Positions 2 through 10,110 of a DNA stretch of 10,110 nt are shown here, piece by piece (within the stretch, counting starts at the first letter, position 1; each line of letters begins with the position of its first letter). The position numbers were made by a program, and so were the translations under genes. Source of the DNA: a virus. Lineage: Duplodnaviria; Heunggongvirae; Uroviricota; Caudoviricetes. The stretch lies in IMG/VR virus record IMGVR_UViG_3300010280_000146, one strand, 5' to 3'. Below the pieces are notes generated by a model. That model did no database searches, was not told the DNA's origin, and saw only the letters and a list, made by a program, of their open reading frames with translations.

Positions 2-121
2 CATCTGCCGTACGATTTCCTCGGTCGCGTTTCCAACCGCATTATCAATGAAGTGAATGGTATTTCCCGCGTGGTGTATGACATCAGCGGCAAGCCACCA
101 GCGACTATTGAGTGGGAATGA
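2..121 (+). CDS. guaA: GMP synthase, 3' end (partial; 5' part lies upstream of the window)
   Basis: Frame ending at TGA 119-121 translates to [39 protein letters not shown], which I recognise as the conserved C-terminus of enterobacterial GuaA (recalled from memory, not searched). Confidence 0.8.
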
Positions 122-167
122 TTAACAGCTAACTCATAGCAAGTCATTCCTATTCAGATGCTAATTC

Positions 168-200
168 AACCCTCTGTTTTTACAGAGGGTTTTTGTTTTT
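168..200 (+). terminator. Rho-independent terminator downstream of guaA
   Basis: Stem CCCTCTG (170-176) / CAGAGGG (183-189), 6-nt loop, followed by TTTTTGTTTTT (190-200). Confidence 0.6.
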
Positions 201-249
201 ATGTATTCATTTCTATTCACTCTACACCATATTTTTCGGCGGTACAGGT

Positions 250-285
250 GACGGTATTACCTTAAAGGTATACTCTCATACCGTC
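250..285. promoter_or_regulatory. Inverted repeat GACGGTA...TACCGTC enclosing a TTACC-N5-GGTAT operator-like site (257-271) upstream of int
   Basis: Arms at 250-256 and 279-285 are exact reverse complements; the inner 15-mer TTACCTTAAAGGTAT matches the palindrome found in the other promoter regions at 9 of 10 half-site positions. Confidence 0.35.
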
Positions 286-313
286 ATGAAAATGGTTTCT
301 ATACGGGTGAATT

Positions 314-1564
314 GTGCTTACCGATACAAAATTAAAAAACCTCAAGCCGCAGGACAAACTGTACAAGGTCTCCGATCGTGACGGGCTGTATGTAGCTGTT
401 CTTACGTCAGGCACGGTCTCGTTTCGCTACGACTACCGTATCAACGGTCGCCGCGAAACGCTGGTAATCGGGCAGTATGGGCGTGACGGTATCAGCCTGG
501 CAGAAGCGCGAGAAGAACTGATTGCTGCAAAGAAGTTGCTTAAAGCAGGCCAGTCACCGGCTGCGGCTAAACGTGACGGTATCAAAAAGATTCGTGGTGC
601 TGAGACGTTTGCGGTACATACCGACAGTTATATGAAACACGTCATCCTGGCTGAAAGTACCCGCGCAATGAAGCAGGCAGTGATCGACCGTGACATACTT
701 CCTGTTCTTGGCAACAAAATGATGGCTGAAATTACCACATCGATGGTTCGTGATTTGTGTGACCGGATTGTCGAACGCGGTGGCCGGGCAACAGCAGTGC
801 AGGCCAGGGAGATCATCAGCAGCGTATACCGTCACGCCAATGACCGTGGTCATGGTTTGTTTAATCCTGCAGCTGACATTAAACCTTCGTCTATCGCCAT
901 ATTTAAACCACGAGAGCGAACACTGACACCAGAAGAAATTGGCCTGTTCTTCCGCACGTTGGATGCCATTGGTGCTATGGGCACTATGAAAATGGCTTTA
1001 AAGCTGGTGCTTATCACTATGGTTCGTAAAGGCGAATTCACCAATGCAACGTGGGATGAAATAGATTTTAAAAAATGGACATGGACAATTCCTTCAGACC
1101 GCATGAAGGGAAGCCGGGCGCACGTTATTTACCTGCCTAAACAGGCACAGGATATATTGGTCGGGTTGCAGATGTGCGCTGGTGGAAGTGAATATCTGGT
1201 TCCTGGTCGTTACAATTTCCGGAAGCCATTATCTAATGCCGCGCTGAACTCTCTGATCGACAGAACGGTGAAAATAATAAATGAAGATGGTGAGCATATT
1301 CAGGACTTCACTGTACATGATATGCGCCGTACAGCCAGTACATTGTTGCATGAGGCTGGTTATCCTTCAGACTGGATTGAAAAGGCTCTGGCACATGAGC
1401 AGAAAGGTGTGCGCGCCGTATATAACAAAGCGGAATACGCTAGACAGCGCGCCTACATGTTGCAGCAGTGGGCCGATATGATTGATTCCTGGATTAACGG
1501 GGATCATACGGATCTGATTCCGTTCTCCCCGTCGAAGTTTGAGAAGTGGATGGCGGGGGAATAA
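314..1564 (+). CDS. int: Tyrosine recombinase / phage integrase, P4-type (N-terminal arm-binding DUF4102-like domain plus catalytic domain)
   Basis: 416-aa ORF with GTG start. N-terminus LTDTKLKNLKP...LYVAVLTSGTVSFRYDYRINGRRETLVIGQYG is typical of P4-like integrase arm-binding domains; C-terminal HDMRRT (HxxR box) and VRAVYNKAEY (catalytic Tyr region). Sits next to a host gene 3' end. Confidence 0.9.
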   Translation: MLTDTKLKNLKPQDKLYKVSDRDGLYVAVLTSGTVSFRYDYRINGRRETLVIGQYGRDGISLAEAREELIAAKKLLKAGQSPAAAKRDGIKKIRGAETFAVHTDSYMKHVILAESTRAMKQAVIDRDILPVLGNKMMAEITTSMVRDLCDRIVERGGRATAVQAREIISSVYRHANDRGHGLFNPAADIKPSSIAIFKPRERTLTPEEIGLFFRTLDAIGAMGTMKMALKLVLITMVRKGEFTNATWDEIDFKKWTWTIPSDRMKGSRAHVIYLPKQAQDILVGLQMCAGGSEYLVPGRYNFRKPLSNAALNSLIDRTVKIINEDGEHIQDFTVHDMRRTASTLLHEAGYPSDWIEKALAHEQKGVRAVYNKAEYARQRAYMLQQWADMIDSWINGDHTDLIPFSPSKFEKWMAGE

Positions 1565-1567
1565 CGT

Positions 1568-1762
1568 TTAATTATTCTGCTGATTTTCTTCCATCTCGGC
1601 TTCTGCTGCCAGTGATTCAATTTTATCTGCGAATATTGCTGACAGTGTTGCAAATTCAGCATCAGTGACAGCGGGAACAGGAACAAACCTGATCCCGCTG
1701 TGTGCAAGCATGTTTGCAGTTTCAAGGCATTTCCTTAAATCTGCTGGTGATGCCCTGTTCAT
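1568..1762 (-). CDS. Small hypothetical protein (64 aa), translationally coupled to the upstream methyltransferase gene
   Basis: Internal ATG of track ORF 1568..1882 at 1762..1760 forms an ATGA overlap with the methyltransferase stop (1761..1759). Product MNRASPADLRKCLETANMLAHSGIRFVPVPAVTDAEF... has an acidic tail. The track's N-terminal extension overlaps the methyltransferase in another frame and is rejected. Confidence 0.5.
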   Translation of the reverse strand: MNRASPADLRKCLETANMLAHSGIRFVPVPAVTDAEFATLSAIFADKIESLAAEAEMEENQQNN

Positions 1763-2409
1763 GCTGCACGCTCCCGTCCCTGGTTGTCTGTTGGTGACAG
1801 AGGAGCATTGCTGAATGCATTTGTTAATCCGCCAATATACAACGCGTATCCTGGGTGTAGTTGCACGGCCGGGTCTTCGCACTGATTACCCCAAACATCG
1901 AAGCCATGAGACGACTGGCGGGCGAACAGTTCAATGCGAGAAACATCGCCTAACAATTGCACAAGTTTTTCACGAACGATATCTGGTTTTCTTGAATGCT
2001 CAAGCCGCGGTGCGGTAAATGACTGAACGATCCCTGCATTAATGCGCGGAGGTAGTTTTCCCTTAACTGCAAACAGGCAATCTTCACTATTGGCGCGAGT
2101 CATGTGTCCCATACCCATAACCAGTTTATCTGGTTGTCGACTACCACATTTTATCCACGTGAAGCCCTTCATGGTCATCAGACGGAATCCCCAGGCTTCA
2201 ACAACTTTTAGCGCTTCGAGTGGTTGTGTTGGCACCCACCACATGGCCAACAGACAGTTTTCATCGGCCAAATCCCACACAGGAAGGCGGCAGATATCCA
2301 GCACACTCATAACCGGATATTTAAAACCGGCACCGCGATTACCATCTGCGGCTTTGTCCCGGTATACCCAGGGTGGATCTGCATAGATTAGTGTGTATTT
2401 CTTAGTCAT
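1759..2409 (-). CDS. MT-A70 family DNA N6-adenine methyltransferase (phage Dam-like, orphan)
   Basis: 216-aa ORF starting MTKKYTLIYADPPWVY; the DPPW catalytic motif near the N-terminus is characteristic of MT-A70-type amino-methyltransferases. No adjacent restriction endonuclease gene is visible. Confidence 0.85.
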   Translation of the reverse strand: MTKKYTLIYADPPWVYRDKAADGNRGAGFKYPVMSVLDICRLPVWDLADENCLLAMWWVPTQPLEALKVVEAWGFRLMTMKGFTWIKCGSRQPDKLVMGMGHMTRANSEDCLFAVKGKLPPRINAGIVQSFTAPRLEHSRKPDIVREKLVQLLGDVSRIELFARQSSHGFDVWGNQCEDPAVQLHPGYALYIGGLTNAFSNAPLSPTDNQGRERAA

Positions 2410-2701
2410 AAACCACCCCGCAACATCCTATACCGCTATAGTCGCCACGGCGAAGGCCGTTACCTTTTGTGATACATTGGTCCCTGCGAACCGCGATCCT
2501 TGCACGCTCAACATCACCAGAAGCAACATCCATACACTGAAGCCAAAGGTGAGCGGCAATGCGGAACTGCCCTTTTTTTTCTCTTTCAATCGCGCGTTTT
2601 TCGATCTCTATCGCCGCAGGAGTAACGGCGACAATCTTTGACGGACTGCGCATTGAAACCTTATTCATGTGATATTTTTCAAGTCGGCTTAACTTTCTCA
2701 C
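2402..2701 (-). CDS. Hypothetical protein; start uncertain (GTG 2701, ATG 2668 or ATG 2653)
   Basis: ORF ends in an 8-nt overlap with the methyltransferase start (GTTTATGACTAA), suggesting coupling. Charged region AIEIEKRAIEREKKGQFRIAAHLWLQ looks protein-like but the C-terminus is low complexity. No family recognised. Confidence 0.4.
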   Translation of the reverse strand: MRKLSRLEKYHMNKVSMRSPSKIVAVTPAAIEIEKRAIEREKKGQFRIAAHLWLQCMDVASGDVERARIAVRRDQCITKGNGLRRGDYSGIGCCGVVYD

Positions 2702-2810
2702 TTAATCCAACCCTCTCTGAAAATTAATGCCAGCAGATAAAGCCATGCTGAAACAGAGGCCAGGAATAAGTACCATCCTGACCATTTGCTCCAGTGCCTT
2801 AGCAGCGCAC

Positions 2811-3059
2811 TCATGCAGCGTTGCTCACGGGACGATATACACGTTGCTGAACAGGAGGTTTTTTACCCTGGAACTCTGCTGGGCTTGCTGCCTGACGTTC
2901 ATCAAGCCAACGTTCAACTTCATCACGGTTCCATGCGCAGCGTTTATCGGTGATATACCAGCGTTTGGGAAATTCCCCTGCGCGCTCCATACGGTCGATA
3001 GTGCTCCATGACAGTGGCACCACCGCCAGGAGTTCCTTCTTACCTAATGCACCTTTCAT
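2811..3059 (-). CDS. AlpA/Xis-like excisionase-family DNA-binding protein (MerR-type HTH)
   Basis: 82 aa; LSWSTIDRMERAGEFPKRWYITDKRCAWNRDEVERWLDE fits the AlpA/excisionase HTH_17 pattern (STIYR...G.FP.P......W...E...WL). RBS AGAGG lies 6 nt upstream of ATG 3059. Confidence 0.75.
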   Translation of the reverse strand: MKGALGKKELLAVVPLSWSTIDRMERAGEFPKRWYITDKRCAWNRDEVERWLDERQAASPAEFQGKKPPVQQRVYRPVSNAA

Positions 3060-5412: not shown

Positions 5413-5997
5413 TTATTGTTTGTTTTTTTCGTTCTGGTTGATGACAAATTCAATGTAACTTTCGATCTTTGCCTTCTCTGTTTCAGGTAACAATGCGTAG
5501 CGCGAGCGGTCATAGTTGATAGTTGCAGGGTCATGCGGATGAATCAGTAGTTCATATCCGTGACGCCCGAATGCAGATGCAACATTCTCCAGGGTGGAAA
5601 TGGAAACGCTGACCTCATTGTTTAACAGGCGGCTTATTGTCACCTGGGCGACGCCGGATGCGCGGTGAAGTTTTCCCTGAGTTGAAAGGTCGCGGCTTTC
5701 ACTCATCCAGCGTTCCAGGTTGTGAGCTGCCAGCTGACCAATGTCGCTTGGGCCGACAGGCTGAAAACCTTCCTGAGAAAGCGAGCGATCGATATCAAGC
5801 CAGTTACGGGGTTTATTGGCGGCAGCTTCAATTTTTCGCGCAACCTGGTCGCCGATAACCTTCTTGCCAAGAGCCCAGCGGTTTACCAGATTTGCCTGAG
5901 TTCCAAGTTTTTCTGCCATCCGCGTCTGAACACCATTGAATTCACGGTCGATCAAGTCGTTGAGATTTTGCCTGCGGACGTCCTGGATACTTTTCAT
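5413..5997 (-). CDS. Tandem helix-turn-helix (two XRE-type HTH domains) transcriptional regulator; candidate prophage repressor
   Basis: 194 aa. First HTH around GVQTRMAEKLGTQANLVNRWALGKKVIGDQVARKIEAA, second around LHRASGVAQVTISRLLNNEVSVSISTLENVASAF. No LexA/S24 peptidase motifs seen. Placed like cI, divergent from a Cro-like gene, with its own terminator. Confidence 0.75.
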   Translation of the reverse strand: MKSIQDVRRQNLNDLIDREFNGVQTRMAEKLGTQANLVNRWALGKKVIGDQVARKIEAAANKPRNWLDIDRSLSQEGFQPVGPSDIGQLAAHNLERWMSESRDLSTQGKLHRASGVAQVTISRLLNNEVSVSISTLENVASAFGRHGYELLIHPHDPATINYDRSRYALLPETEKAKIESYIEFVINQNEKNKQ

Positions 5998-6748: not shown

Positions 6749-7564
6749 ATGAGCAGACATGCAACAGATTGGGCCTGGGAGACAGATCCAGGTAGCTCGT
6801 CATTAAAGCTCATACTGCTCTCGATGGCTGACAGAGCCGATGAATATAACCTCTGCTACCCCAGCATAGAACGCCTCGTTAAAGACACTTGTCTGAATAA
6901 AAAAACCGTGCAGGCCGGGCTTATATCGCTCATGAAAATGGGGCTTATTTCAGATACCGGAGAGAGAAAGGGAGCGACAAAAAGAGTGCGGGTTTTCTCT
7001 CTTAATATAACCAAAAACGGGAACATTAAAGGCAACCGGGAGGGGGGCAATGAACCCGAAAACGGTAATGTTACCGAAAACGGGAATATACCCAAAAACG
7101 GGATGTTGAATGATCCCAAAAACGGGATGTTGAATGATCCCAAAAACGGGATCCAGAACCAGTCATATAACCGGTCATTTAACCAAGAGAGGGAGAGCAG
7201 GACAAAAAACGGGGATTCTGTGTCTCATGACCCCGGCGCAAACAACGCCGTGATGAATAACTTTGTTCCTCCTGGTGGGCCAGGGCAATTAGGCAAATTT
7301 GTCATGCATGAACAATGGCAGCCATCAGATGACTTTCTTCGGAAAAGCTCATTGCAGGGAATCTACCTGGATAGTCTGCCAACGGCACAGGAACTTGCAG
7401 AGTTCAGAATTTACTGGATGGCTGAGGGTAAGGCATACCATCAGGCACAGTGGGAGCAGAAGCTGGCAAGGCGGCTGCAGATTAGCAGACAGAAGCAATC
7501 AACATTACCTGATAACAACGTTCCGCACTGGAACAGCCCTGAAGCGTGGGAGGATTTCTTGTGA
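6749..7564 (+). CDS. Replication initiator (O-like): N-terminal winged-HTH domain, Asn/Gly-rich repeat linker, C-terminal DnaT-like domain
   Basis: 271 aa. N-terminus MSRHATDWAWE...LKLILLSMADRADE...SIERLVKDTCLNKKTVQAGLISLMKMGLIS (HTH_36-like). C-terminus WQPSDDFLRKSSLQGIYLDSLPTAQELAEFRIYWMAEGKAYHQAQWEQKLARRLQISRQ closely parallels the E. coli DnaT C-terminal region (WQPDADF...[29 protein letters not shown], recalled). RBS GGAG 8 nt upstream. Confidence 0.85.
   Translation: MSRHATDWAWETDPGSSSLKLILLSMADRADEYNLCYPSIERLVKDTCLNKKTVQAGLISLMKMGLISDTGERKGATKRVRVFSLNITKNGNIKGNREGGNEPENGNVTENGNIPKNGMLNDPKNGMLNDPKNGIQNQSYNRSFNQERESRTKNGDSVSHDPGANNAVMNNFVPPGGPGQLGKFVMHEQWQPSDDFLRKSSLQGIYLDSLPTAQELAEFRIYWMAEGKAYHQAQWEQKLARRLQISRQKQSTLPDNNVPHWNSPEAWEDFL
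7011..7150 (+). repeat. Iteron-like direct repeats inside the O-like gene (candidate origin of replication)
   Basis: Six copies of the core C(C)nAAAACGG(G) at 7011, 7055, 7075, 7091, 7115 and 7139, including two exact 24-bp tandem units CCCAAAAACGGGATGTTGAATGAT (7091-7114, 7115-7138); they encode the repeated NGMLNDPK linker. Confidence 0.6.
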
Positions 7565-8346
7565 ACAACGTTTTTACCGCGATACAAAACCGTGACGGAG
7601 AAGCCCTTTCTCGCATGTCAGGTTATGAGCATCAGTACACCAACAATGACAACGTGGTGAACATGTCAGCAGAGAGGCTTGTTGATGCCCTTTTCAAACA
7701 GCTGAAACAACTGTTTCCGGCGGCAGTGGTAACCAACCTGAAGACGCCAGAGCAGGAAGTTGCTGCAAAACAGCAGTGGATTGCTGCGTTTGCCGAAGGG
7801 GGGATCCGAACCCGTGAACAGGTTTCTGCTGGTATGCGCCACGCCCGCGCCAGTGAATCTCCGTTCTGGCCGTCGCCAGGGCAATTCATCAAGTGGTGTA
7901 AAGACAGCAAGATGGTTCTTGGCGTCACCATTGACGATGTGATGGCGGAGTTTCACCGGTACAGCAAGGAAAAAAGTTTATATCCTGGTGGTCCCGAAAG
8001 ATTCCCGTGGCGGCATCCGGTTATGTACTGGGTCGTATGTGATACCCGCCGTGCAATGTATCAGCGCCAGCTTAGCGAGATTGAGGTTGAGAAACACGCG
8101 CGCAGGCTGCTCGATGATTGGGCGAAAAAGGTGGCTTCCGGACAGCAGATACCCGATCCGGTGATCAGCATACAGGCAAAGCCAGAGCCCATGAGTACAC
8201 CTCCGGACACAGGGAGAGACGTTTACCATCCACCAGGGCGAAGTTTCGGGTGCATGCCTAACGCCGCCACTCTGGGGGGAATAACACCGGCGCAGTGGCT
8301 GATGGAGGAATACAGGCGGGGAAAGGCGGCAGGATTTATCAAGTAA
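7561..8346 (+). CDS. Lambda P-like replication protein (DnaB helicase loader)
   Basis: GTG 7561 with GGGAGG 7 nt upstream, overlapping the O-like stop (GTGA). FPAAVVTNLKTPEQEVAAKQQWIAAFAEGGIRTREQVSAGMRHARASESPFWPSPGQFIKWC parallels lambda P (FPASLANRDQNEVNEIRRQWVLAFRENGITTMEQVNAGMRVARRQNRPFLPSPGQFVAWC, recalled). The track start at 7546 is an alternative. Confidence 0.75.
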   Translation: MNNVFTAIQNRDGEALSRMSGYEHQYTNNDNVVNMSAERLVDALFKQLKQLFPAAVVTNLKTPEQEVAAKQQWIAAFAEGGIRTREQVSAGMRHARASESPFWPSPGQFIKWCKDSKMVLGVTIDDVMAEFHRYSKEKSLYPGGPERFPWRHPVMYWVVCDTRRAMYQRQLSEIEVEKHARRLLDDWAKKVASGQQIPDPVISIQAKPEPMSTPPDTGRDVYHPPGRSFGCMPNAATLGGITPAQWLMEEYRRGKAAGFIK

Positions 8347-8383
8347 TACCAGCGCGATAGCGCATTTTTTTACGCCTTGATAA

Positions 8384-8398
8384 TTACCTTTTGGGTAA
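8384..8398. promoter_or_regulatory. Operator-like palindrome TTACC TTTTG GGTAA downstream of the P-like gene
   Basis: Perfect inverted half-sites in the AT-rich intergenic region 8347-8463. Confidence 0.4.
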
Positions 8399-8445
8399 TA
8401 AAGTATTCTAAACTCTATTGATTTCGTGTCTTATGTGGTTTTTAA

Positions 8446-8460
8446 TTACCTCAGGGGTAA
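8446..8460. promoter_or_regulatory. Operator-like palindrome TTACC TCAGG GGTAA abutting the DUF1064 gene start
   Basis: Perfect inverted half-sites ending 3 nt before ATG 8464 and overlapping the likely RBS; centre 62 bp from site 8384-8398. Confidence 0.4.
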
Positions 8461-8463
8461 ATC

Positions 8464-8808
8464 ATGAGAAAACAGATACAGGCTCTTGGTCGACTCAAAA
8501 CAGGCCAGATGAACAAAACAGAATCTGCGTATTGCCAGCACCTTGAGCTGCGTAAACGTGCAGGAGAAATCGTCTGGTATCGATTTGAGGGTATCAAGCT
8601 GCGGTTAGCTGACAACACGTTCTATACGCCCGATTTTGCTGTGATGCTCGCCACCGGCGAGATGGAACTGCACGAAGTGAAAGGTTTCTGGACCGACGAC
8701 GCCAGGGTGAAAACCAAAGTCGCCGCAGATCAGTATCCGTTCCGAATCATCGGGGTAACGGTTAAACCAAAGAAAGCAGGTGGTGGCTGGAACATCGAAG
8801 AGTTCTGA
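8464..8808 (+). CDS. DUF1064-family phage protein (nuclease-like fold, function unknown)
   Basis: 114 aa; NKTESAYCQHLELRKRAGEIVWYRFEGIKLRL...YTPDFAVMLATGEMELHEVKGFWTDDARVKTKVAADQYP fits the DUF1064 pattern as recalled. Confidence 0.65.
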   Translation: MRKQIQALGRLKTGQMNKTESAYCQHLELRKRAGEIVWYRFEGIKLRLADNTFYTPDFAVMLATGEMELHEVKGFWTDDARVKTKVAADQYPFRIIGVTVKPKKAGGGWNIEEF

Positions 8809-8848
8809 ATCGACGATCTTTTTAGTTATCAATGTAATCAATAAGTTA

Positions 8849-8857
8849 TGTGGATAA
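8849..8857 (-). promoter_or_regulatory. Consensus DnaA box (TTATCCACA on the minus strand) upstream of the 187-aa gene
   Basis: Plus-strand TGTGGATAA at 8849-8857 is the exact reverse complement of the DnaA box consensus; a single copy, so chance cannot be excluded. Confidence 0.25.
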
Positions 8858-8869
8858 GCGAGGGTAAAG

Positions 8870-9433
8870 ATGGAAAGTAATATCAAAGGGTTAGTTGCCG
8901 CCGGGCATGAGATGGCTTCGGAACTGAAAGCAGAATGTGGTGCCGTTGATATGCGCAGCGTGGCAAAGCTGATCAGCGATTTGGCAACGCAACTGGAAGT
9001 GCAACTGGTGCGTGCTAATGCGCTGGCCGAAGACCAGCAGAAAGCGATTGAGTCAATTAAGCAGGCTGATGCGGCTGTTAAGTTGGCACACGAGAAGTTT
9101 TCGGCGCTGGCGGCGGAGAATGCGGGGCTGAAGTCTGGCGCTATGGACGAAATCAAGGTTATCAACCGTGGAGGGCAGGCATATTGTGTAAAAGATGGCG
9201 TGCAAGTTAATCCCATGTATGCAAGAGGGTGGAATGACTATCGCGCAAAGTCTCTGCAATCAGACCCCCCAGCCACCGATGCTTTCCTGGCTGAAATTGA
9301 ACGCAAAGCAATCCGCAAGTTCATTAACAGCATTGAACACATCCTGCGTGACAAGTTGTCACCGTATGACACCGAAGAGATGCTTGAGACTATGCGTATT
9401 TTTCTGGAAGAACAGGGAGGCGAGCAAAAATGA
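8870..9433 (+). CDS. Hypothetical protein (187 aa) with a predicted coiled-coil N-terminal half
   Basis: RBS GAGGG 5 nt upstream of ATG 8870; Ala/Glu/Lys-rich heptad-like N-terminal region; no family recognised. Confidence 0.6.
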   Translation: MESNIKGLVAAGHEMASELKAECGAVDMRSVAKLISDLATQLEVQLVRANALAEDQQKAIESIKQADAAVKLAHEKFSALAAENAGLKSGAMDEIKVINRGGQAYCVKDGVQVNPMYARGWNDYRAKSLQSDPPATDAFLAEIERKAIRKFINSIEHILRDKLSPYDTEEMLETMRIFLEEQGGEQK

Positions 9434-9732
9434 CAATCACAAAACAACGAGTAGAAAAAATCATATATCGCCATGAAATGGGACTGAACAGCGATGTCAC
9501 TGCCGAAGAGGTTTATGACCTGGCTGTACTGGCGCTGAATTTATCAAATATCGCAAACCTGAAGCGATACGAGCTTGATATGGGTGGTTGTGACTCGTTC
9601 GGTCAGGATTGTGGCGCTGACATGACTGAAGATTCTGATGGCGATTATGTCCTGTTTGATGACGTGGTTAAGTTGTTTGAGCTTGATACATTCGAAAGCC
9701 CAGCAAAGGAGGCAACCAGTGAGCAAGATTGA
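9430..9732 (+). CDS. Hypothetical acidic protein (100 aa)
   Basis: ATGA overlap with the upstream gene stop at 9430-9433; acidic C-terminal half (DSDGDYVLFDD...); no family recognised. Confidence 0.5.
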   Translation: MTITKQRVEKIIYRHEMGLNSDVTAEEVYDLAVLALNLSNIANLKRYELDMGGCDSFGQDCGADMTEDSDGDYVLFDDVVKLFELDTFESPAKEATSEQD

Positions 9733-10110
9733 CTATCAGGCACTGCGTGAAAAGGCAGAGCGTGCAATTCCGGCAATGGAACGCCTGTTAATGTTGCCAG
9801 TTGATGATGATCTGATAAGCGAACAGGAACTTAAAGATTACGGTGTGGATATTGATGCGCTCAACGCCTTCAAATTTCTGACCGGACCAGAAACCGTGCA
9901 GGCGCTGCTGGATGAACGGGAAAGAAACCAGCAATACATCAAACGCCGTGACCAGGAGAACGAGGATATTGCGCTAACGGTTGGGAGGCTGCTAATCGAA
10001 AACGGCCAGCTTGTTGCCGATACGCTACGCCACTTAGCTGATAACGAAATCGACTCTGATTATTTTGCTATCACCTCAACGAATGAGAACGGTACTGAAA
10101 TTGATCATGA
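9719..10110 (+). CDS. Hypothetical protein, 3'-truncated by the window edge (not in the ORF track because no stop is reached)
   Basis: GTG 9719 with AAGGAGG (9706-9712) 6 nt upstream; open frame to the window end, hand-translated as MSKIDYQALREKAERAIPAMERLLMLPVDDDLISEQELKDYGVDIDALNAF.... Start overlaps the previous gene by 14 nt. Possible resemblance to Ead/Ea22-like N-termini is only a weak recollection. Confidence 0.5.
   Translation, partial: MSKIDYQALREKAERAIPAMERLLMLPVDDDLISEQELKDYGVDIDALNAFKFLTGPETVQALLDERERNQQYIKRRDQENEDIALTVGRLLIENGQLVADTLRHLADNEIDSDYFAITSTNENGTEIDH

Follow-up and report, generated by a model that had tools for sequence, protein, structure and literature searches.

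At the right end of the window, by which we mean the whole 10,110-nucleotide stretch of viral DNA analysed here, lie three closely packed genes, ORF1, ORF2 and ORF3 (Table 1). The stop codon of ORF1 overlaps the start codon of ORF2 in an ATGA at 9430-9433, and ORF2 and ORF3 share 14 nt (9719-9732), with AAGGAGG at 9706-9712 lying 6 nt 5' of the GTG that starts ORF3; each element of the coupled arrangement described in the original prediction is present in the sequence. ORF3, which had been noted as truncated, is indeed open to 10110, and a contig identical to window positions 8401-10110 (L169) completes it as a 264-aa protein ending in AAGIRIKGE. All three are genuine genes and not chance ORFs, because their PHROG or Pfam matches are strong, their homologues number in the thousands, RefSeq annotates the identical set of three CDSs in an E. 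coli prophage of 97% identity, and dN/dS is low. Purifying selection acts on each of them, with pairwise dN/dS of about 0.1-0.25 compared to 0.11 for the neighbouring DUF1064 gene. No Rfam RNA family matched in the window, and no significant repeats were found in 8800-10110. A minus-strand ORF at 8605-9216 carries no RefSeq annotation.

The window belongs to a phiV10/epsilon15-like prophage adjoining guaA and is not lambdoid in the strict sense. ORF1-ORF3 follow O-like, P and DUF1064 genes on the rightward strand and lie outside the exo-xis region; the placement after the replication genes was read correctly in the original prediction, which nevertheless passed over the intervening DUF1064 gene. 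The same order and position are seen in phiV10 (p46 eae-like, p47, p48 ead-like), while P22 has the order eaE, orf45, eaF, eaD. Many E. coli prophages carry annotated genes almost identical to these three, and the trio was already annotated in phiV10 years ago; pieces of 9430-10110 were matched in 2,612 of 5,426 complete E. coli genomes. A terminator scan of 8300-10110 detected none, and a short hairpin with a T-run lies 3' of the P gene. A promoter-like site at 8377-8404 is weak and no better than chance expectation, and no separate promoter for ORF1-ORF3 stands out in the sequence scan. Coupled translation together with the absence of a scan-detected terminator is consistent with expression alongside the early-right genes.

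Table 1. Genes, modules and sequence features at the right end of the window.
Feature	Position	Strand	Details
DUF1064 gene	8464-8808		between replication genes and ORF1
ORF1, 187 aa	8870..9433	+	ATG 8870, TGA 9431-9433; GAGGG at 8860-8864
ORF1 coiled-coil segment, 84 nt (28 aa, four heptads)	9020..9103	+	absent from common 159-aa variants
ORF1 middle module, about residues 91-131	9140..9262	+	predicted three short strands and a helix
PATDAFLAE junction motif, ORF1 residues 134-142	9269..9295	+	links the variable modules on its 5' and 3' sides
ORF1 C-terminal module, residues 143-187, Oad2-type	9296..9430	+	predicted helical hairpin
ORF2, 100 aa	9430..9732	+	ATG 9430, TGA 9730-9732; GGGAGG at 9415-9420
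ORF2 core, about residues 44-80, LKRYELD..CDS.GQDCGADM.ED.DG.YVLFDDV	9559..9669	+	C54 and C61 near-invariant
Gene-boundary sequence AAGGAGGCAACCAGTGAGCAA, conserved	9706..9726	+	ead RBS and start; doubles as code for the C-terminus of the upstream gene
ORF3, 5' part, 392 nt, 130 codons	9719..10110	+	GTG 9719; open to window end
Ead/Ea22 conserved core, ORF3 residues 59-91, VQALLDERERNQQYIKRRDQENEDIALTVGRL	9893..9991	+	common to lambda Ea22, P22 EaD and phiV10 p48

None of the three genes had been assigned to a nameable family, a reading that does not hold for ORF3 or ORF1; the trio falls within known, extensively shuffled accessory families that occur in prophages of E. coli and Salmonella. 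By homology, ORF3 is a member of the Ead/Ea22-like family: its window fragment matches Pfam PF13935 (Ead_Ea22) with E 5.5e-24 and 85.7 bits, compared to a gathering score of 27, and the completed 264-aa protein scores 85.5 bits. Over residues 1-94 it shares 51% identity with lambda Ea22, and its identity to the Nord1 ead gene is 94%. Like lambda Ea22, P22 EaD and phiV10 p48, it has the (I/V)(D/N)YQALRE N-motif and the LLDERERNQQYIKRRDQENEDIALTVG core (dN/dS 0.11 among 45 distinct sequences), and the completed gene also has the AAGIRIKGE end. Family members consist of a brief N-terminal part, a coiled coil in the middle and a C-terminal domain that varies but closes with this conserved sequence; of this three-part architecture the N-motif and core lie in the window, and the C-terminal domain and AAGIRIKGE come from L169 only. 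ORF3 differs from its Ea22 relatives in the insert between N-motif and core, in its GTG start and in its post-replication location, and its post-core and C-terminal domains bear no relation to the lambda Ea22 domain solved by NMR. Although ORF3 lies outside the exo-xis/ea leftward region by which Ead/Ea22 genes are located, this is a matter of context and not of homology, because its position is the usual one in phiV10-type phages. Ea22 is a tetrameric, coiled-coil protein (PMC10834534) that is pro-lysogenic in lambda and an Stx phage (PMC7093339, PMC10834534).

ORF2 is, as had been described, a small acidic protein of 100 aa (pI 4.08, 23 D+E versus 8 K+R). It matches PHROG 3126 and no Pfam family, and it has 220 close relatives and 90 cluster representatives. 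An apparent fast rate of evolution (dN/dS 0.61) proved to be a frame artefact of a one-codon indel, and splitting the variants gave 0.13-0.20. The ORF2 core recurs at varied positions within longer EaA-like mosaic proteins, and a Pfam search with 10 proteins carrying it returned no match. The leader of ORF2 (MTITKQRVEKII...LAVLAL) resembles the MTTITKERIE...ARIALASL leader of P22 EaA and DUF551-type mosaics; however, ORF2 stands alone, with neither the AAMLQG-linked downstream domains nor the DUF551 of the P22 EaA-type proteins, and it resembles P22 EaA itself only weakly (E 0.02).

ORF1 matches PHROG 492 (E 5.5e-45) and PHROG 614 (E 4.1e-34) and has 7,665 relatives in the database. Judged from its sequence, it is an EaE/Oad2-family mosaic protein made up of a head, a coiled coil, a middle module, a PATDAFLAE joint and a 45-aa tail. 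The coiled coil of the original prediction is supported by an AlphaFold2 model with one helix over residues 28-90 (low confidence; pLDDT 62.8) and by natural variants with an in-frame, 28-residue (four-heptad) indel inside that helix, as seen in an alignment and the SF-468 comparison; GCGCTGGC stands at each end of the segment concerned. Predicted secondary structure elements in the middle module are E96-100, E103-108, E111-113 and H115-129, and such modules are interchangeable, with at least six types and with alternatives in loci L028-L031 and L049-L054. Across ORF1, Oad2, HK75_28, P22 EaE, phiV10 p46 and the Nord1 'HNH' protein, PATDAFLAE forms the only block of consecutive invariant columns, and it is also found in the ORF2-fusion variants P0034 and P0047. 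AlphaFold2 places helices at residues 136-162 and 165-183 of the C-terminus, and the C-terminal module has a dN/dS of 0.13.

Structure-based and database searches added little to these assignments. The AlphaFold2 models of ORF1 and ORF2 (pLDDT 55.1 for ORF2) were built from shallow alignments, in which all sequences share 70% identity or more, and are too weak for a fold to be inferred; Foldseek searches with them against BFVD gave no match at E <= 0.001. Sequence and profile searches of the PDB returned nothing meaningful for ORF1, the ORF1 family, the ORF2 family or full ORF3, and no match for an ead protein from another locus (L001). NCBIfam returned nothing for ORF1, ORF2, the ORF3 fragment or the ORF3 C-terminal domain.

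The closest lead to function comes from Oad2 (HK446 gp27), a direct binder of the P2 OLD nuclease that suppresses both the toxicity and the defence activity of OLD (bioRxiv 10.64898/2026.07.10.737580). PHROG 614 is the best match for Oad2, P22 EaE and phiV10 p46 alike. ORF1 and Oad2 are 27% identical over 182 aa by BLASTP (E 4e-13), and hhalign relates them with 98.1% probability (E 1.2e-13). When the ORF1 C-terminal module was compared by Smith-Waterman with 11 module types, only that of Oad2 was significant (score 60, z 9.9, 0 of 1000 shuffles), and the remaining ten scored at chance. In addition to PHROG 614, the two proteins have in common a coiled coil with LAAENAG(L/M)KS, the PATDAFLAE joint and a related tail of about 45 aa, and the Oad2 head, MKQM(S/T)LIEMDGFLKGKC.., is also carried by many ORF1-family variants. 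ORF1 nonetheless differs from Oad2 in its low overall identity, in the head found in the window and in an unrelated middle module. The loci differ as well: the Oad2 gene lies in the leftward recombination locus beside xis, with no ORF2 or ead downstream, whereas ORF1 follows the replication genes. The gene-boundary pattern in Table 1 is present in 37 of the 173 loci retrieved, including at the 3' end of oad2, and reads ..KEATSEQD before a stop in one frame and ..RKGGNQ before a stop in another; 'LRKGGNQ' and 'KEATSEQD' were rejected as functional motifs, since both are one DNA boundary (RBS and ead start) in two frames. P22 EaE and phiV10 p46 share PHROG families and the joint motif with ORF1, and p46 also shares its first 50 residues and its position after DUF1064. 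Both differ from ORF1 in their middle and C-terminal modules, and P22 eaE lies in the leftward ea region.

An HK75 homologue that is 54% identical to Oad2 was reported not to be sufficient for OLD inhibition (bioRxiv 10.64898/2026.07.10.737580), and OLD inhibition by ORF1 is therefore not to be assumed. In our alignment, Oad2 and HK75_28 have a near-identical head and coiled coil and differ in the middle and tail modules; specificity should therefore reside in these modules.

From the 'ea' gene identity, families, mosaic architecture and purifying selection seen in the analysis, we infer a mechanism in which three coupled accessory genes, drawn from a shuffled 'ea' pool of enterobacterial temperate phages, would be expressed early after infection or induction and would act via protein binding and not catalysis. 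By analogy with Oad2 and P2 OLD, ORF1 would most likely be a stoichiometric inhibitor of an immune protein of the host or of a rival element, with its target specificity set by the middle and tail modules. ORF3 would most likely form a coiled-coil oligomer displaying its C-terminal domain and tilt the phage to lysogeny, as Ea22 does in lambda and Stx phage. We give this account, mechanistic steps included, an even chance of being correct.

Alternatively, the three proteins may, as the lambda exo-xis genes do, only tune lysis-lysogeny or host physiology and play no part in bacterial immunity, with the likeness of ORF1 to Oad2 reflecting scaffold ancestry and not a common job. Pro-lysogenic activity is the sole published Ead/Ea22 phenotype (PMC7093339, PMC10834534), and the reported insufficiency of the 54%-identical homologue, the different middle modules of ORF1 and Oad2, and P22 EaE, which has no known function, all fit such a role. 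We nevertheless consider it somewhat unlikely: the sole biochemically characterised member of the ORF1 family is an immune inhibitor, and ORF1 specifically has the tail type of that active protein. Swappable modules would also suit changing targets, although dN/dS values of 0.13-0.24 give no sign of accelerated evolution.

ORF2 and the ORF1 tail may instead form a functional pair, either a complex or an inhibitor with its helper, and for this reason never be separated. ORF2 lies directly 3' of the ORF1-type (IERKAIRKF-type) C-terminal module, with the ATGA overlap, in 45 of 45 distinct loci that span at least six head/middle combinations and two genome positions, compared to 0 of about 49 loci with other C-terminal modules. 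The converse fails: among 80 ORF2 loci, an unrelated small membrane-protein gene precedes ORF2 in at least 42 and other EaE tails precede it in two, so that linkage between module and downstream gene does not run strictly both ways. The two N-terminal variants of ORF2 pair equally with one tail variant (13 versus 14), and Oad2, despite its related tail, has no ORF2 downstream. The association may merely reflect the absence of a recombination joint between module and ORF2, and we regard a functional pair as unlikely.

The locus had been put forward as an accessory or defence locus, of which the accessory part is correct. Defence genes are frequent in prophage accessory regions, and the pairing of a variable C-terminal module with a small acidic protein encoded just 3' of it has a superficial resemblance to a polymorphic toxin and its immunity partner; even so, it is very improbable that the cassette protects the lysogen as an anti-phage defence or toxin-antitoxin system, and a host-defence role is unsupported. 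In PADLOC-DB 2.0, neither ORF1, ORF2 nor the window fragment of ORF3 had a match at E < 0.01. No promoter of their own stands out for the genes, which are coupled to the early operon. The C-terminal domain of full-length ORF3, which lies outside the window, does match a PADLOC 'DpdH' profile (E 3.9e-36). We rejected this match as evidence of defence and judge the profile to be a mislabelled sub-profile: it has 127 positions, genuine DpdH/I is described as BrxC-like, and no Dpd genes lie nearby. Among the best 120 of the 1,876 homologues of this domain, names are only ead/Ea22-like, 'prophage protein' or 'hypothetical', never DpdH. A toxin-immunity pair was likewise rejected, because ORF2 is also found where the ORF1 tail is absent, and unrelated or varied genes lie 3' of other tails; the tail itself is a predicted 45-aa helical hairpin with no enzyme motif. 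The data do allow phage counter-defence, which points in the opposite direction, and such a role for ORF1, modelled on its relative Oad2, is plausible but unproven.

That the genes are decaying mosaic filler is the least credible reading: mosaicism is extreme, truncated or frameshifted copies are frequent in genomes and no biochemical function is assigned, but dN/dS of 0.11-0.24 is comparable to that of the DUF1064 neighbour, the reading frames are unbroken, their RBSs are good and translational coupling is preserved, and thousands of intact homologues exist. The original prediction had named homology to ordinary lambdoid accessory proteins with no phenotype as evidence against itself; such homology is essentially what we find, but the relatives do have phenotypes, as Ea22 is pro-lysogenic and Oad2 inhibits OLD.

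A more specific and rather doubtful extension of the proposed mechanism is that ORF1 serves epsilon15/phiV10-like prophages in counter-defence and, through its Oad2-type hairpin and possibly with ORF2, inhibits an OLD-family or related ABC-ATPase/TOPRIM nuclease other than the target of Oad2. The middle and tail modules of EaE proteins would then be combinatorial inhibitor specificities, swapped at the PATDAFLAE and RBS joints.

Taken alone, ORF1-ORF3 have little significance. However, a biochemical role, OLD inhibition, is now defined for one member of the EaE family, which provides a testable lead for very common 'phage dark matter'. If the module-swapping picture is true, the EaE-like genes of Enterobacteriaceae prophages, which number in the thousands, might be interpreted as exchangeable immune inhibitors.

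The window corresponds to the left arm of a prophage organised like phiV10/epsilon15, and an E. coli 90-3040 prophage adjoining guaA matches it at 97% identity across its full length. The three overlapping right-edge genes, ORF1, ORF2 and ORF3, lie exactly where the original prediction placed them, with the lengths and overlaps it described, including the 14-nt ORF2/ORF3 overlap, and with the AAGGAGG ribosome-binding site (RBS). All three are also annotated as CDSs by RefSeq in the 90-3040 prophage. ORF2 is acidic as foreseen (pI 4.08), and the truncated third gene does continue off the window; we completed it to 264 aa from L169, a contig of assembly GCA_023885065.1 with a single-base difference from the window in 6,681 and full identity over 8401-10110. 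The coiled coil expected in ORF1 is borne out by a 63-residue helix, predicted at low confidence, in which natural variants differ by an in-frame indel of 28 residues (four heptads). The 84-nt segment concerned is missing from the commoner 159-aa variants and has GCGCTGGC at each end, pointing to its loss or gain through short-repeat recombination.

Features of the prophage left arm and its right-edge genes (window coordinates)
Feature	Position	Strand	Remarks
Integrase	314-1564		window start
Leftward early block	after integrase		MT-A70 methylase, PerC-like, HTH, RecT, PD-(D/E)XK exonuclease
DUF1382 gene	1568-1762	-	RefSeq annotation of 97%-identical prophage
MT-A70 DNA methyltransferase gene	1759-2409	-	RefSeq annotation of 97%-identical prophage
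PerC-family regulator gene	2402-2701	-	RefSeq annotation of 97%-identical prophage
Repressor	5413-5997	-	
cro-like gene	after repressor, before DnaT-like O gene		
DnaT-like O protein gene	6749-7564		
Tandem repeats in O gene	7054-7152		
Lambda-P homologue	7546-8346		
Hairpin, T-run and weak promoter-like site	8352-8404		after P gene
DUF1064 gene	8464-8808		between replication genes and ORF1
ORF1	8870-9433		187 aa; GAGGG 5 nt upstream
ORF1 coiled-coil indel segment	9020-9103		84 nt, 28 aa
ORF2	9430-9732		100 aa; ATGA overlap with ORF1
ORF3	9719, past window end		GTG start; AAGGAGG at 9706-9712, 6 nt before start

DUF1382, in the leftward operon beside the integrase with the MT-A70 DNA methyltransferase and PerC-family regulator genes, is the family that RefSeq gives to lambda orf63, an exo-xis gene; some lambda exo-xis genes thus occupy their classical place, and the ea22-like gene lies in the right arm. 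About 1.5 kb past the window end, a fourth ea-type gene (L169:7292-7894) encodes an EaA-like 200-aa protein (MTTITNKK...PPQEVNRG), bringing EaE-, EaD- and EaA-type genes together in the post-replication region of the prophage. Within the O gene, a 24-nt unit CCCAAAAACGGGATGTTGAATGAT is repeated in tandem (2.6 copies, 100% match) beside an 18-nt repeat; these encode Asn/Gly-rich PKNGMLND repeats in the O protein and, by comparison with lambda O, are probably the origin iterons. For the DUF1064 gene, not mentioned in the original prediction, the match is to PHROG 190 'Holliday junction resolvase' (E 7e-43), with weak similarity to endonuclease I and TnsA-like nuclease families.

The original prediction could name no family with confidence for these genes, a view that did not survive profile searches: ORF1-3 are very probably ea-type accessory proteins. 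ORF3 belongs to Pfam PF13935 (Ead/Ea22-like; 85.7 bits versus a gathering score of 27), shares its N-terminal motif and LLDERERNQQYIKRRDQENEDIALTVG core with lambda Ea22, P22 EaD and phiV10 p48, and when completed ends in AAGIRIKGE as does the Ead/Ea22 family. Its C-terminal domain is of a very common type, with 1,876 homologues. ORF1, for which we found no Pfam family, matches PHROG 492 (E 5.5e-45) and PHROG 614 (E 4.1e-34), the latter being the best match of P22 EaE, phiV10 p46 ('eae-like') and HK446 gp27. ORF2 is PHROG 3126, with no Pfam or NCBIfam family found and only 90 cluster representatives in an exhaustive representative search. It starts with a leader similar to the one in P22 EaA-like proteins, and its core (LKRYELD..CDS.GQDCGADM.ED.DG.YVLFDDV), which holds two near-invariant cysteines, recurs at varying positions inside longer EaA-like mosaic proteins, in none of which does it have a Pfam assignment. 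Gene order agrees: phiV10 p46-p47-p48 repeats the series eae-like, small gene, ead-like at the same position after DUF1064, and P22 eaE-orf45-eaF-eaD echoes it. In E. coli Nord1, ORF2 and ORF3 homologues are found at the classical site, with recT on one side and xis/int on the other, so the same modules shift between genome positions.

Alignment of relatives showed that the ORF1 family is strictly modular, running from a head of several types through a coiled coil ending in LAAENAG(L/M)KS, at least six kinds of middle module and an invariant joint, PATDAFLAE, to one of many mutually unrelated C-terminal modules. The endings ..LRKGGNQ and ..KEATSEQD, found in many upstream genes, were rejected as protein motifs: they are one DNA boundary, AAGGAGGCAACCA(A/G)TGAG(C/T)AA, read as ..RKGGNQ* in one frame and ..KEATSEQD* in another. 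The RBS and start of the next ead gene make up this boundary, which also encodes the C-terminus of the gene upstream. It occurs in 37 of 173 fetched loci (for example, window 9706-9726 and L168:8505-8525, minus strand), among them the 3' end of HK446 oad2 with no ead gene following. What look like 'conserved C-termini' are joints of recombination and translational coupling.

According to a July 2026 preprint (bioRxiv 10.64898/2026.07.10.737580), the HK446 gp27 protein, called Oad2, interacts directly with the P2 OLD nuclease and blocks both its toxicity in recB-deficient cells and the defence it mediates; Oad2 is a relative of P22 EaE and is at times fused to HNH or EaD/Ea22 proteins. An HK75 homologue of Oad2, 54% identical to it, reportedly does not suffice for OLD inhibition. 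ORF1 aligns with Oad2 over 182 aa (27% identity, BLASTP E 4e-13; hhalign probability 98.1%). Oad2 and its HK75 homologue HK75_28 are almost identical in head and coiled coil and completely divergent in the middle and C-terminal modules, from which we infer that specificity for OLD would reside in the latter two. We compared the ORF1 tail (residues 143-187, excluding the shared joint) with eleven tail types by Smith-Waterman alignment and 1000 shuffles, and found the Oad2 tail to be its only relative (score 60, z 9.9, 0/1000 shuffles); HK75_28, P22 EaE, phiV10 p46 and seven other tails scored at chance level. The middle modules of Oad2 and ORF1 are unrelated.

We propose that ORF1-3 would be small non-enzymatic binding proteins synthesised early. 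Because of the Oad2 analogy and the Oad2-type tail, ORF1 might bind and inhibit an immune protein stoichiometrically, a specific role that we favour at low confidence. Lambda and Stx Ea22 are coiled-coil oligomers that promote lysogeny (PMC7093339, PMC10834534); by analogy, ORF3 would form a coiled-coil oligomer displaying its variable C-terminal domain and would favour lysogeny. The alternative closest to this proposal is that the genes purely tune the lysis-lysogeny decision and have no immune role, a reading to which the Ea22 precedent lends itself and the Oad2-type tail does not. As to timing, ORF1-3 are translationally coupled and downstream of the early-right genes, and a scan of 8300-10110 found no terminator and promoter-like sites no more numerous than chance; this layout would suit use by the phage after induction better than use by the lysogen. 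By eye, a short GC hairpin with a T-run behind it (GCGCGATAGCGCATTTTTTT) could be seen after the P gene, ahead of a weak promoter-like site (TTGATA, 16 nt, TAAAGT), and phiV10 has a putative terminator annotated at the equivalent spot, so DUF1064 and ORF1-3 might be a unit that is regulated separately or depends on antitermination.

The IERKAIRKF-type tail carried by ORF1 was followed directly by an ORF2 gene, with the ATGA overlap, in 45 of 45 distinct loci, regardless of head, middle module or genome position (Nord1 included), and ORF2 followed other tails in 0 of about 49 loci. Elsewhere, the gene before ORF2 often encodes an unrelated small membrane protein or carries a different tail, Oad2 has no ORF2 after it, and the two N-terminal variants of ORF2 occur without preference beside the same tail variant; the linkage is therefore one-way only. 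Tail and ORF2 may be a functional pair, or there may merely be no recombination joint between them. A toxin-immunity reading is not supported, since ORF2 also occurs without the tail.

A role in host defence or as a toxin-antitoxin system fares less well. Of the 'accessory or defence locus' originally suggested, the accessory part holds, given the ea-type families, and the defence part does not: PADLOC matched neither ORF1 nor ORF2, nor the part of ORF3 inside the window. Past the window end, ORF3 residues 153-251 (L169:6746-7042) match PADLOC 'DpdH' PDLC02890 (127 positions, E 3.9e-36). We treated this profile as mislabelled, since genuine DpdH/I is BrxC-like by description, no other Dpd genes lie nearby in the 90-3040 prophage or L169, NCBIfam gave no match for the completed C-terminal domain, and the best 120 of its 1,876 homologues are ead/Ea22-like, 'prophage protein', 'hypothetical' or unnamed, none being called DpdH. 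Given the BrxC-like description of the genuine proteins, PDLC02890 was probably built from prophage Ead-like proteins, and it could give false 'Dpd component' matches in prophages.

That the genes are non-functional filler is very unlikely: pairwise Nei-Gojobori dN/dS over fetched homologues was 0.19-0.24 for the ORF1 N-part, 0.13 for its tail, 0.13-0.20 for ORF2 and 0.11 for the ORF3 core, compared to 0.11 for the adjacent DUF1064 gene, and ORF1-3 are functional genes. An initial ORF2 value of 0.61 was spurious, caused by a one-codon indel.

ORF1-3 are genes of known kinds with standard family assignments; they share at least 95% identity with genes annotated in several complete E. coli genomes, and of 5,426 such genomes 2,612 contain matches to parts of 9430-10110. 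What the analysis adds is the assignment of an Oad2-type tail to ORF1, the placing of Oad2 specificity in its middle module and tail, the one-way linkage from the ORF1 tail to ORF2, and the explanation of conserved protein ends as an RBS/ead-start boundary.
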